Shown in pieces: positions 9,150 to 26,640 of a DNA stretch of 64,000 bases. Source of the DNA: a bacterium (GTDB lineage Bacteria; SAR324; NAC60-12); the NCBI GenBank assembly GCA_965205865.1, contig CBDBHR010000028.1, forward strand, positions 32,001 through 96,000, read 5' to 3'. Every line of letters starts with the position of its first letter. Position 1 is the first letter of the stretch. The notes under the pieces were generated by a model. It worked only from the letters and a program-made list of their open reading frames with translations. It was not told the origin of the DNA and searched no databases. The position numbers and the translations under genes are program-made.

Positions 9150-9361
9150 AGTTTTCTTCGTTGATGATGACTTTATTACTCGATCTTGAAAATCTCCAGC
9201 ATTTCAGGAAGAGTGATCAACTGGCTGCTTATGTGGGTTTAACCCCTTCCCAGTTTTCCAGTTCCGATCAGGTCCATATGGGCATTACTCGCTCCGGCAA
9301 AGCGGATCTGCGAGGAATGCTCGTCGAAACCGCTTGGATCTTGGTGCGTAAAGATCCTTGA
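9150..9361 (+). mobile_element. IS110-family transposase fragment
   Basis: FRKSDQLAAYVGLTPSQFSSS..GITRSGKADLRGMLVETAW. Confidence 0.75.
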
Positions 9362-9366
9362 TGGAT

Positions 9367-9591
9367 CTACCCTCGCTGGCCAGGATTTGGTGGCCAAGCC
9401 ATGTCTCCGGCATTTCTTCCTCCGTCTACTTGTTTGACAACGTGCTCTGTTTTCTTTTCGTTACGGGCTGCTATGACAATCTCTGAACCATGTTCGGTAA
9501 GTCCCATTGCTATGGCTCGTCCTATCCCACTGTTTCCACCGGTAACGATTGAAACCTTACCTGTGAGATCGAATAAGTTGCTCATTTTCAC
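9367..9591 (-). pseudogene. SDR oxidoreductase N-terminal fragment
   Basis: LFDLTGKVSIVTGGNSGIG then truncated. Confidence 0.75.
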
Positions 9592-17189: not shown

Positions 17190-17283
17190 GTTACCGTGAA
17201 GAAAACTATCTAACCTACTGAAACTATATGGTTTGTTATTTTTATTCATCCTCCGGGGTGAAAATAATTTACATGAAGGTTAC
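17190..17283 (-). mobile_element. 84-bp non-autonomous MITE with the same ends as the adjacent IS110, flanked by duplicated GTTAC core
   Basis: Reverse complement reads GTAAC-CTTCATG...TTTCACCCCGGAGGATGAA...TTCACG-GTAAC; empty site at 26339-26365. Confidence 0.8.
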
Positions 17284-17335
17284 GCGTATATTTTTTGCAT
17301 TCTGCGGTTTCCATGAATACGCTTCACCACAAGTG

Positions 17336-17419
17336 TGTCATTCCTGGCGAAGACCAGGAATCCAGGAATCACCCTGGAACGCTAGCAAAGTGGATTCCTG
17401 GTCTTCGCCAGGAATGACA
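17336..17419. repeat. REP doublet (family A), perfect 29-bp inverted repeat
   Basis: TGTCATTCCTGGCGAAGACCAGGAATCCA / TGGATTCCTGGTCTTCGCCAGGAATGACA. Confidence 0.9.
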
Positions 17420-17513
17420 ACTCGATGAGACGCATAACTGCAAAAATCGTTCACGTAACCTTCATGAAAACTTATGCTTTCACCCCGGAGGATGAAAATG
17501 TTATATACCAATA

Positions 17514-17701
17514 GAGGCTGAAGCGCTCGTTTCTCATGTTAGCGACTTGATCCTGTCACGTAACCTGAGCGTAGCTTTCATTGGTTCGCACCCCGGAGTG
17601 TTTCGTAGTATTTCTACAGAAGGTACGGTAAGAAGACCGACTTCAGGATTCAATTTTGATTCATGGAGCCAGGTAACCCAAGAAAGTGATTTTTCAGCCT
17701 C
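17514..17701 (+). ncRNA. Candidate bridge/seek RNA of the IS110
   Basis: Closing stem GAGGCTGAA/TTCAGCCTC; internal segments match target and donor junctions. Confidence 0.7.
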
Positions 17702-17746
17702 CTTTACGAGTGAAGCCAACTACTACATTCAGGAAAGGAGGAGAAG

Positions 17747-18973
17747 ATGATTCAACCCTTAGCTCAAAGTAGTGCTGGTCTAGATATTCATCGCGCTGTG
17801 ATTGTGGCCACAGTGCTTCATGAGAATCGCGATGGACAAATAAGCAAAAAGGTCAAAGAATTCGAGACCTTTTCACAAGATTTGGAAGAACTCGCTCAGT
17901 GGTTAAAGCAGTTAAACCCAGAGTTAGTGGTCATGGAATCCACAGGCATTTACTGGAAACAAGTTTATGAGTCTCTCGAAAATGTGGGAATTATTCCTTG
18001 GGTGGTCAATGCCTACCATATCAAAAAAGTTCCTGGTCGAAAGAGCGACGTCCAGGATTCAGAATGGTTAGCAGAACTTGCCTGTTGTGGATTACTCAAA
18101 GCCAGTTTTGTTCCTCCAAAAGATTTTCGTCAACTTCGTTTGTTGACACGTTACCGTAAAAAACTTTCAGGCGTTTTGAGTAGCGAAAAAAATCGCTTGC
18201 ACAAAATCCTTGAAAGTTGTGGTATCAAATTAGGGCTCGTGCTCAGTGACATCGATGGCGTTTCGGCACGAAGAATGATCGCTACTCTCATCGAGAGTGG
18301 CGGGATTCAGCCGGATAAACTTGCCTCCCTTTTAGATGGTAGGTTGCTTCCGAAGTTGGCTCTGATTGAAAAATCATTGTCCACTTCTTTGAGTGAGCGC
18401 CAACGTTTTTTGCTCAAACAGATTCAGGCCCATATGGTATGGCTCGAATCCAGGATAGAGCAAATCGATGAGCAGCTCGTTGCGGCGATGGTCCCGTATC
18501 AGGAGCAATATCACTTATTGCAAACCATTCCTGGAATTGACCACATCTCTGCCACGATGTTACTGGCCGAGCTTAGCACCGATATGGGTGCTTTTCCCAA
18601 TAAACACCATCTTTGTTCATGGGTGGCACTCTCGCCTGGAAACAATGAAAGTGCAGGAAAACGCAAAACCGGTAAAACTCGTAAAGGCAATGCATATGTT
18701 CGTTCATTATTATGTGAATGTGCTAATGCTGCCATCAAAACCAAATCGCAATTTAAAGGACGATATCAAGGCCTTGTGATTCGCCGGGGACACAAGCGTA
18801 GTATCGTTGCCATTGCTCATAAAATGCTTCAAATAATTTACATTGTTCTCAAGAAGCAAGAACCTTATCGAGATCCTCAAATTGATTATGAGGCACTCGT
18901 TGTCAAAAAAAATGCTCCCAGATGGTTGAAGGCGCTTAGTAAATATGGGTATTTGCCAAAAAACTCAAACTGA
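17747..18973 (+). CDS. IS110-family DEDD recombinase/transposase
   Basis: AGLDIH, VMESTG, KSDVQDS, ESAGK conserved Ser, AIAHK; RBS AGGAGG. Confidence 0.95.
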   Translation: MIQPLAQSSAGLDIHRAVIVATVLHENRDGQISKKVKEFETFSQDLEELAQWLKQLNPELVVMESTGIYWKQVYESLENVGIIPWVVNAYHIKKVPGRKSDVQDSEWLAELACCGLLKASFVPPKDFRQLRLLTRYRKKLSGVLSSEKNRLHKILESCGIKLGLVLSDIDGVSARRMIATLIESGGIQPDKLASLLDGRLLPKLALIEKSLSTSLSERQRFLLKQIQAHMVWLESRIEQIDEQLVAAMVPYQEQYHLLQTIPGIDHISATMLLAELSTDMGAFPNKHHLCSWVALSPGNNESAGKRKTGKTRKGNAYVRSLLCECANAAIKTKSQFKGRYQGLVIRRGHKRSIVAIAHKMLQIIYIVLKKQEPYRDPQIDYEALVVKKNAPRWLKALSKYGYLPKNSN

Positions 18974-19130
18974 GAAGCGCATCACCTAGAAAATCCATCT
19001 GATTGTGGCTAAAACGTGAACTTCAGGCCCACTCACTCTATGTGCGCCCTCAGCCACCAGATATTTTCACGGTAACATCAGTTTCTAATTGCAAATCATT
19101 GCGCACATTTACTTTTGATCAGGGAAATCC

Positions 19131-19709
19131 ATGAGCGACGAAAAACACGAAGACAGTTTGGAAATGATGAGCTTGACGGCCAAAGTTCTCAAATCCCGCA
19201 CGATTATCATTTCAGATCAAGTCAACAACGAATTGGCGAAAAAAGTACTCAATCAACTGCTGTTGCTGGAGCAGGAAGATCCGCAGAAAGAGATCACCGT
19301 CTTCATCAATTGCCCCGGTGGCGAGGTTTTTTCAGGTTTTGCTATTTATGACGCCTTGCAATTCATCCAATGCGAGGTCACGACGATTGTTGCCGGATTT
19401 GCCGCCAGCATGGGCTCGATTCTCAGTCTGGCTGCCACCAAAAGCCGTCGTTTCGCCTTTCCCCGTTCCAAAATCATGATCCACCAACCGCTTTTAACCG
19501 GCTATCAAGGGCGGGCCACGGATCTTGAAATCCAGGCCAATGAAATCCTCAAAACCCGGGATTTCATCATCGATATCTACTGCCAGGCCACCGGCAAAAC
19601 CTATCAAGAAATCAAGATGGCTATCGACCGCGACAATTGGTTCACTGCAGAAGAAGCCTTGGCGTTCGGTCTGATCGACCGCGTGATTTCCTCCCGCAAC
19701 GAGATGTGA
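19131..19709 (+). CDS. clpP: ATP-dependent Clp protease proteolytic subunit
   Basis: INCPGG, AASMGS, IMIHQP, DRDNW. Confidence 0.93.
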   Translation: MSDEKHEDSLEMMSLTAKVLKSRTIIISDQVNNELAKKVLNQLLLLEQEDPQKEITVFINCPGGEVFSGFAIYDALQFIQCEVTTIVAGFAASMGSILSLAATKSRRFAFPRSKIMIHQPLLTGYQGRATDLEIQANEILKTRDFIIDIYCQATGKTYQEIKMAIDRDNWFTAEEALAFGLIDRVISSRNEM

Positions 19710-26130: not shown

Positions 26131-26420
26131 GAAGGCTCCCTTCATCTATGAGGCGGCATCAGGTCATTGTTTTAAACTCCACCTCTGAGAGGTTTGCAGG
26201 CCAGCGGGCGGTGCCTTTATAACACCCGCAGTTTCATACATATTGACCTTTTGGATGGGGGACTGCACCAGCGGTCCTCCATCTACTTCCTTTCTGAATT
26301 TTCAAGATCATTGAATAATGCGCAATTTTTCTGTATAAGTCATGTTACGCGTATATTTTTTGCATTCAGCGGTTTCCATGAATACGCTTCCCCACAAGTG
26401 TGTCATTACTGTCCCCACAA

Positions 26421-26640
26421 GTGTGTCATTCCTGGCCAAGACCAGGAATCCAGGAGTCGCCATAGTGTGTCATTCCTGGCCAAGACCAGGAATCCAGGAG
26501 TCGCCATAGTGTGTCATTCCTGGCCAAGACCAGGAATCCAGGAGTCGCCATAGTGTGTCATTCCTGGCCAAGACCAGGAATCCAGGAGTCGCCATAGTGT
26601 GTCATTCCTGGCCAAGACCAGGAATCCAGGAGTCGCCATC
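26421..26640 (+). repeat. Tandem array of five 44-bp REP units (family A)
   Basis: GTGTGTCATTCCTGGCCAAGACCAGGAATCCAGGAGTCGCCATA x5, no unique spacers. Confidence 0.95.

Follow-up and report, generated by a model that had tools for sequence, protein, structure and literature searches.

A Predicted Upstream Guide RNA with Exchanged Target-Guide Strands in an IS110-Family Insertion Sequence of a SAR324 Bacterium

The Insertion Sequence and Its Ends

The DNA analysed here, referred to as the window, is a stretch of 64,000 nucleotides (nt) from a bacterium of the SAR324 lineage (GenBank assembly GCA_965205865.1, contig CBDBHR010000028.1, positions 32,001 to 96,000). The window is part of the contig labelled C28 in an assembly of 4.74 Mb and 30 contigs. 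It contains an insertion sequence (IS) at 17460..19076 on the forward strand (1617 bp, counting one GTAAC), whose left non-coding end holds a predicted guide RNA. The left copy of GTAAC, common to target and donor, is present at 17455..17459 (+). The left junction reads TTCAC-GTAAC-CTTCATGAAAA (17450-17470) and the right junction reads TTTTCACG-GTAAC-ATCAG (19064-19081), with TTTTCACG GTAAC forming the right terminus at 19064..19076 (+). The non-coding ends measure 287 nt on the left, including the RNA region, and 103 nt on the right. The left end begins with a hairpin (TGAAA..TTTCA) and a conserved motif, CACCCCGGAGGATGAA, at 17463..17496 (+), which were identified in alignments.

The transposase, or recombinase, gene lies at 17747..18973 (+) and encodes a protein of 408 amino acids (aa); the recombinase of the characterised relative IS621, unlike it, has about 326 aa. 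The protein matched PF01548 (DEDD_Tnp_IS110, N-terminal DEDD/RuvC-like; E 2.1e-25, residues 10-157) and PF02371 (Transposase_20, C-terminal; E 1.8e-22), and scored 267 bits against the NCBIfam model NF033542, 'IS110 family RNA-guided transposase' (cut-off 140). A first-pass annotation of the window had described a complete IS110-family element, which is borne out by both Pfam domains and the NCBIfam model, and every string that it quoted was found where it had been placed. Its span of 17455-19076 has the correct ends but takes in both GTAAC copies, the element proper being 17460-19076. Judged from its sequence, the element is an intact, recently and apparently active member of the IS110 family (sensu lato).

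The right-terminal TTTTCACG and the sequence CATGAAAA (17463-17470) form an imperfect subterminal inverted repeat of 8 bp, with 7/8 positions matching. In other family members, only a CACG/CGTG or CATG pair was seen as a subterminal repeat, as judged by eye with no systematic count. The right-end motif TTTCAYGNTAA was kept in 16 of the 23 loci scanned and in 28 of 38 representatives.

Target Sites and Copies in the Genome

The genome was searched for further copies by BLAST with 17200-19400. A second full copy is present on contig C23, with 98.55% identity over 1655 nt. A truncated copy at C28:586335-586502, outside the window, corresponds to window 17449-17624 only, that is, to the first 165 nt of the element, and is inserted at TTCATGTAAC, outside the host repeat described below. 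A whole-genome search with a 12-base left-junction pattern, allowing at most one mismatch, gave 28 matches. Fourteen of these run into the left end of the element and comprise two full IS copies, the truncated copy and 11 copies of a short derivative; the other 14 are unrelated.

The natural targets are the inverted ends, GTTACGYG...CRCGTAAC, of a host repeat. In the window this repeat occupies 17279..17459 (identified by BLAST and by comparison of 30 ends), with the IS at its right end and the short derivative at its left end. A search with two 20-base strings from the two inverted ends, allowing up to three mismatches, gave 14 and 17 matches, representing 30 distinct ends. Eighteen of the 30 are empty, reading CACGTAAC followed by ATCAGTT, or ACGTAAC followed by ATGACTT, and 12 are filled by the IS or its 89-nt derivative precisely between GTAAC and AT(G/C)A. 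Two insertions lie beyond these 12, one in tandem behind another short derivative and one being the truncated copy. Because 18 empty and 12 filled ends could be compared, the element ends are fixed at 17460-19076 (1617 bp), in agreement with the C23 copy and with the joined ends described below. Insertion is site-specific and without target duplication, adding the element and only the common GTAAC. The target TTCAC GTAAC AT(C/G)A and the donor junction TTTTCACG GTAAC CTTCATG, both proposed beforehand, fit the empty and filled sites.

The derivative is a non-autonomous, miniature inverted-repeat transposable element (MITE) of 89 nt, located in the window at 17190..17278 on the reverse strand with flanks CGCGTAAC and ATGACTGAG. 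From the IS left end it retains the first ~37 nt, including the hairpin and CACCCCGGAGGATGAA and ending at 17496, where its BLAST matches stop, and from the right end about 20 nt; it has no RNA gene and no transposase. There are 11 copies in the genome, all at GTAAC sites, those outside the window being on C3, C24 (three), C27 (two, in tandem), C28:277878 and C30 (three). The MITEs are presumably mobilised in trans, and they define the minimal donor as about 37 + 20 nt.

Contigs from four public sequencing runs were compared with 17200-19300. A joint of the right end to the left end (RE-LE joint) is present in two of them, running from 19071 to 17455, so that the sequence goes back 1617 with 5 letters that fit either side. 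In run X16 it was found in one contig of depth 132 with at least 255 letters on each side, and in run X17 in one contig whose shorter side has 25 letters; X16 and X17 are RNA libraries from one single study. Three records from run X1 represent the empty site, continuing as ATCAGTTATTT beyond 17459.

The host repeat, which may be REP-like or a MITE of another family, is also present at window 26415-26637 and at C30:58-65 kb, and its internal units of ~44-74 nt build long tandem arrays elsewhere in the genome. Other IS110-family transposase gene fragments are located at window 9167-9376 (+), at C30:2772-2981, and at loci on C29 and C30. They score below the family cut-off, and some have internal stops.

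A Conserved and Covarying RNA Fold

Transposase relatives came from three sets: 62 loci on one-genome-per-species contigs (mostly 41-61% identity, with a few fragmentary or more distant ones lower), the best 80 of 590 metagenome matches, and the genome G010 (80% aa identity), one of three of 61 related genomes to match, the window's own included. A hidden Markov model of the left end (nhmmer) located the non-coding region in 83 places of the 146 loci. Removal of near-duplicates left 38 distinct elements from several phyla with a defined left junction, 28 of which also have a right end. They share a left-end architecture comprised of the hairpin, then CACCCCNGA..ATGAAAG, then an outer closing stem and, within it, two modules.

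The predicted bridge/seek RNA is about 190 nt long (17514..17701, as are all its parts on the forward strand) and is conserved in the 38 elements. Its outer stem pairs GAGGCTGAA (17514-17522) with TTCAGCCTC (17693-17701), with a duplex energy of -16.4 kcal/mol. Module 1, the putative target-binding loop (17525..17570; helices 1 and 2), is an internal loop in which a basal stem, GCUCG (17525-17529) with UGAGC (17566-17570), encloses two unpaired guide strands and a small inner stem-loop. Module 2, the putative donor-binding module (17575..17686), is a multiloop with two hairpins, HP1 and HP2. Its basal stem, CUUUCAUUGG (17575-17584) with CCAAGAAAG (17678-17686), is better within elements than across them in 33/34 cases (own -13.2 vs. 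cross -6.2 kcal/mol). Across the family the multiloop consists of a junction, UCGYACCCCGGAUUG, then HP1, a G(C/U)A(C/U)GGUAA segment, and HP2. In the window element, the conserved single-stranded junction is UUCGCACCCCGGAG (17585..17598, from the alignment), and HP1 lies at 17599..17623 (helix 3), with GAAGG (17619-17623) as its 3' arm.

For six helices, the own-versus-cross duplex energies showed better pairing within than across elements in 27-33 of 34 elements. Fifteen hand-placed pairs were 90% paired, compared with 80% when shuffled and 29-50% when slid, and 10 of the 15 had double changes. The guide segments fall in the unpaired strands of the helices in 34-38 elements. G.U pairs were kept in 28/34 and 32/34 elements, and as these would be C.A on the other strand, the RNA is placed on the forward strand. 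Since the variable helices in the MAFFT alignment are not structurally aligned, RNAalifold returned only 9 pairs on it, and own-versus-cross energies were thus used instead. In the minimum free energy fold of the whole left end (z = -2.1), the two target guides pair together through the core; this pairing is regarded as a by-product, since both guides cover GTAAC. The best two Rfam matches, to plant and worm microRNA precursors, were rejected as long-hairpin artefacts of the host repeat and MITE (17237-17499).

Left Target and Left Donor Guides

Each RNA column was compared with each position of the flanks and element ends, in the same-sense and complementary directions, with 200 shuffles of the element labels. 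Positions are counted outwards from the core into the left target (LT), right target (RT), left donor (LD, the element's right end) and right donor (RD, the element's left end). Family-wide, the core common to target and donor is TAA or part of it (38 elements).

The left target guide is the 3' strand of module 1, UCACGUAACC (17556..17565), placed by covariation and including two bases that match the first two of the element. Positions 17558, 17559 and 17560 match LT-3, LT-2 and LT-1 in the same sense in 23/37, 29/37 and 34/37 elements, respectively, 17561 matches the first core base in 37/38, and 17564 and 17565 match RD+1 and RD+2 in 35/38 and 36/38. The left donor guide, ACGGUAA (17625..17631), likewise placed by covariation, has the same sense as the right end and core. 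Positions 17626, 17627 and 17628 match LD-3, LD-2 and LD-1 in 28/28, 27/28 and 28/28 elements, and 17629 matches the first core base in 28/28. At the following base, 17632, agreement with the first base of the right flank was seen in 15/26 (expected 0.38). The donor guides of L018 (CACGCUAAAAA) and G010 (CACAGUAAG) each match their own right ends. The left-target diagonal (17558-17565 vs. LT-3..RD+2) gave z = 5.3-9.1 and the two diagonals together z = 5-9. Longest matches were also compared without an alignment, for six RNA segments against four DNA segments and in either sense; here, the left donor guide (LDG) with LD gave p = 1.8e-6, with a weaker complementary signal (p = 0.005), and the left target guide (LTG) with LT gave p = 0.01; no other pair stood out. 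These z-scores and Wilcoxon p-values ignore the relatedness of the members and overstate significance.

Short guide matches needed such comparative tests because only the 9-mer is improbable alone. This 9-mer, TCACGTAAC (17556-17564), has 3 matches on both strands of the window against 0.12 expected, a number reached in 0/100 shuffles; ACGGTAA has 10 against 3.62 expected (1/100 shuffles reaches 10). From its covariation, TCACGTAAC(C) is read as the left target guide, of the same sense as the left flank and core, extending two bases into the element and matching the left junction product. The two extra bases (CC) are handshake-like.

The closest relative, G010, has a naturally reprogrammed left guide, GAAAGUUAAGC where the window element has GUCACGUAACC, and three of its five left junctions, reading AAGTTAAC joined to CGATCATG, fit this guide. 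Its donor guide, CACAGUAAG, equals the right end plus the following G at 5/5 right junctions. Thus, the assignment of TCACGTAAC as the left target guide is upheld by family covariation and by G010, and that of ACGGTAA as the left donor guide by the near-complete agreement at its variable positions. The X16/X17 variant with the RE-LE joint has C>A at 17557 and C>G at 17559, so that its left target guide reads UAAGGUAAC; a second natural reprogramming is possible.

The left non-coding end very probably encodes a bridge/seek-type guide RNA, with the guide strands swapped relative to IS621, and we infer that this RNA is made and bound by the recombinase. A number of observations weigh against this reading, in addition to the relatedness of the members noted above. 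No bridge-RNA or other matching family was found in Rfam at E <= 1. A scan with a sigma-70 consensus and for terminators found no promoter in the left end, and hand-picked -35/-10 candidates scored poorly. Contigs from RNA libraries may hold DNA and cannot show transcription, ends or strand. The RE-LE joint is what a circle gives; however, a tandem dimer could give the same joint, and tandem copies occur in the family (L029, L061 and the C27 MITE pair). In G010, the left guide fits only about 4-5 nt at the site of the full copy L064, CTGCTTTAAT; a 15-mer target, predicted blind from the two guides of G010, had 0 exact matches in that genome, and at <=3 mismatches there were 106 matches, compared with 454 for a reversed control. 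The tandems L029 and L061 are head-to-tail, the right flank of one copy being the left end of the next.

The same matches could alternatively be DNA-level features, either internal copies of the ends that arose by nested or tandem insertion or sites bound by protein, and the region itself would be only the leader of the transposase gene. The occurrence of tandem and nested copies in the family fits this explanation, as does the lack of direct evidence for RNA from the region in the RNA-library contigs and the promoter scan. Nevertheless, we consider it extremely improbable. Six helices covary, and the conserved G.U pairs would be C.A on the other strand or have no meaning in duplex DNA; the guide segments occupy unpaired strands in elements of several phyla; the guides change together with the flanks; and NCBIfam calls the protein family RNA-guided.

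Right Target Guide

The candidate right target guide is the 5' strand of module 1, UCAUGUUA (17534..17541, +; TCATGTTA in the DNA), whose complement on the top strand is TAAC ATGA (TAACATGA). Among the 12 insertions with a readable right flank, six have ATGA (8/8 matches), four have ATCA (7/8), and one each has GTCA and ATCC (6/8); all 12 sites belong to one repeat family and are not independent. Within the family, in the register of the window element, the matches at RT+1 to RT+6 were 14/26 (expected 0.42), 14/25 (0.31), 10/25 (0.31), 9/25 (0.27), 8/25 (0.24) and 7/25 (0.19), giving 62/151 when pooled, against about 0.29 expected.

It might be that only the left guides are functional, the 3'-strand guide and core setting the target; the 5' strand would then match TAACATGA at 8/8 positions by coincidence, with the core and the palindromic CATG contributing. 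Several results point this way and count against a role for the 5' strand. The contiguous-run test of the right target guide was not significant (1.24 vs. 0.77 nt, p = 0.13, n = 25). In G010, where the left flanks are conserved in 3/5, pairing of the 5' strand is confined to the core, and beyond the first G the five right flanks diverge. The C23 copy has T->C at 17537, inside the guide, giving one more mismatch to its own site. Occurrences of TAACATGA by itself are not unusual in the window (4 on both strands vs. 1.84 expected; 10/100 shuffles reach 4). In a metagenome-assembled genome of Sansalvadorimonas, seven near-identical copies of a 55%-identical relative (L005, L007-L011 and L049) have only (C/T)AAA in common on the left and nothing on the right, which suggests very low target specificity in that member. 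On the other hand, five further consecutive matches anchored at the core would be expected by chance with a frequency of about 0.001 (by arithmetic), RT+1 and RT+2 are above expectation in the window's register, long matches occur in single elements (7 nt in L028, 6 nt in L018), and the characterised relatives IS621 and ISEc11/ISEc21, as far as their published descriptions were covered, have a guide for each strand. A system with left guides alone is thus considered unlikely.

We therefore regard 17534-17541 as probably the right target guide, on the evidence of sequence matches. The proposal of TCATGTTA for this role fits the sites in the genome, with 8/8 at 6 of the 12, while the excess across the family is weak. 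Natural right guides can be short, the right target guide (RTG) of IS621 having 4 nt (Hiraizumi 2024, PMC11208158, in the portion available). The 5' strand of the metagenome locus L075 contains AAUGACC, which has the same sense as its core and right flank TAATGACC and is not complementary to them; this match, opposite to expectation for a right guide, may be chance.

Right Donor Guide and the Donor End

The first-pass annotation had placed a right donor guide, GAAGGT, at 17619-17624, directly abutting the left donor guide. In full, its model has GAAGGU pairing with ACCTTC on the top strand of the left end beside ACGGUAA, with HP1 opening in the complex. The 6-nt complement does exist in the window; by arithmetic, chance alone would place a 6-mer like GAAGGT in 188 nt about 0.05 times for each register tried. 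Among 34 elements, the HP1 G-C pair is broken only in that of the window (G.G here, G-C in 31), and the C->G change at 17622 that breaks this pair also creates the complementarity to its own end. In addition, L027 has a 5-nt match, GAUCG, and the end of the truncated copy falls exactly at 17624/17625.

Against this model, positions 17619-17623 match their own left ends in 32/38, 19/38, 11/37, 16/37 and 29/38 elements, respectively, no better than the cross-element expectation for the same columns (0.83, 0.53, 0.30, 0.43 and 0.78). In the family alignment, none of the RNA columns exceeded z = 3 for complementarity to the variable bases preceding CATG, and this includes the two end positions that vary most. 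GAAGG is the 3' arm of helix 3 in HP1, which is 96.5% paired, with double changes at 4 of its 5 pairs; one pair splits into CG 15, UA 14, AU 2 and GC 1. Lastly, G010 has GAAUG, which does not match its end, TAA(C/T)CGAT. The model is considered very unlikely. Without covariation with element ends, GAAGGT is better described as part of a conserved, covarying hairpin, and the notion of abutting donor guides falls with it. The truncated copy stops exactly at the GAAGGT/ACGGTAA boundary.

No right donor guide was found in the family covariation and longest-match tests, which also weighs against the guide-RNA reading and leaves donor recognition half explained. The proposed check of guide-target covariation among homologues was thus positive for the left target and left donor, weak for the right target and negative for the right donor. 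On these sequence comparisons, three of the four guide assignments hold (one as probable only), and the fourth does not.

The last ten bases of UUCGCACCCCGGAG, 17589-17598, are identical (10/10, same sense) to the left-end DNA motif at 17481-17490. The two segments co-vary slightly over 37 elements (4.1 vs. 3.4 of 8 bases, p = 1.6e-4, uncorrected for relatedness). The family might be one with no conventional right donor guide, in which the RNA recognises the donor at a distance and the left-end hairpin brings the motif beside the crossover, although we judge this distinctly unlikely. If true, this would account for the retention of precisely the hairpin and the motif in the RNA-less 89-nt derivatives. 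In L090, CACCCATGA is present in both the junction and the left-end motif.

Under the guide-RNA reading, the RNA (~17514-17701, +) would carry its target internal loop and donor multiloop within the outer stem, the 5' strand of module 1, UCAUGUUA, being complementary to the core and right flank on the top strand. The complex of recombinase and RNA would join the circular RE-LE junction (..TTTTCACG GTAAC CTTCATG..) to target sites (..CACG TAA C/AT(G/C)A..) at both ends of the host repeat. Strand exchange would take place within TAA, the exact crossover and the order of strands being inferred. The same complex would also mobilise the RNA-less 89-nt derivatives in trans.

Comparison with Known Systems

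The available text of Hiraizumi 2024 (PMC11208158) describes the target loop of IS621 as a stem, the LTG at nt 50-58, a stem-loop, and the RTG at nt 77-80 with handshake bases, and the donor loop as the LDG at 123-130, a stem-loop, and the right donor guide (RDG) at 157-165. The left guides of IS621 pair with the bottom strand and the right guides with the top strand (PMC11208158; Durrant 2024, PMC11208160). As in IS621, so far as these sources extend, the window element has a recombinase with DEDD and Transposase_20 domains, a left-end RNA upstream of the gene, one target and one donor module, left guides with the top-strand sequence that would pair with the bottom strand, a core inside the guides, extra bases beside the target guide that match the donor (the handshake idea), no target duplication, and an RE-LE joint. 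Unlike in IS621 as described there, the 3' strand, rather than the 5' strand, carries the left target guide, and the handshake-like bases extend the bottom-strand guide and not the top-strand one. Furthermore, the donor module is a multiloop with the LDG between two hairpins, compared with a simple internal loop with LDG then RDG; a right donor guide was not found; TAA takes the place of CT as the core (GTAAC being common in the window element); the transposase is longer, at 408 aa; and no junction promoter is evident. The layout had been suggested to differ from that of IS621, and this is true of the target loop, where the bottom-strand guide is on the 3' side.

Many IS1111 elements have multiloop donor regions (Durrant 2024, PMC11208160). 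For IS1111-type seekRNAs, Siddiquee 2024 (PMC11187229) places the top-strand complement 5' of the bottom-strand one; ISEc21, the one IS110-type element in that study, has the reverse order. IS1111-type elements carry their long non-coding region downstream of the gene and IS110-type elements carry it upstream, apart from named exceptions, and the transposases have 330-350 aa in the IS1111-type, 315-330 aa in the IS621 branch and 395-455 aa in the subgroup with IS110 (PMC11187229). These statements, like the comparisons that rest on them, refer to the available part of each source.

The window element resembles the IS1111-type elements ISEc11, ISPa11, ISKpn4 and ISPst6, in which the top-strand complement likewise precedes, as 17534-17541 precedes 17556-17565 here. 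It may also resemble the IS1111 group in its imperfect 8-bp subterminal inverted repeat (7-17 bp in that group) and, like ISPa11 on REP (repetitive extragenic palindromic) sequences, it targets the ends of repeated elements. It is unlike them in its upstream non-coding region, downstream in the IS1111-type, and in its 408-aa transposase, compared with 330-350 aa. With ISEc21 it shares the upstream non-coding region and the short matches to both target strands, but the match to the top strand lies 5' of that to the bottom strand here and 3' of it in ISEc21. The transposase has 23% identity (39 bits) to that of ISEc21 and 22% identity (47 bits) to that of IS4321, whose 3' region showed no visible sequence likeness when compared by eye only. 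The protein is thus equidistant from the two named references compared, and its length of 408 aa falls within the 395-455 aa given for the subgroup with IS110. A tblastn search of plasmids gave only generic 'IS110 family transposase' names (best 48.8%).

The right-then-left order of the target guides proposed at the outset holds but is not unprecedented, being known from IS1111-type seekRNAs. As read from the sequences, the element family combines an upstream RNA (IS110-type) with the IS1111-type guide order. No description of this combination was found in the literature searched, figures and supplements excepted, and the figures or supplements of Durrant 2024 and Siddiquee 2024 may already show it. 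The layout is a variant of known ones and not a new kind.

Significance

The position of the RNA gene, here upstream, and the order of the target guides appear as separable characters over the 38 elements. This separability bears on the divergence of the two groups and on the design of orthogonal guides. RNA-guided IS110/IS1111 recombinases are under development as programmable genome-writing tools, and to our knowledge few layouts have been dissected, namely IS621/IS622, ISEc21 and some IS1111 members. The single genome studied here offers a natural data set, with empty and filled sites, two autonomous copies and eleven minimal derivatives, to which a relative with a naturally reprogrammed guide is added. 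The right-donor side is the part of this system likeliest to teach something new.

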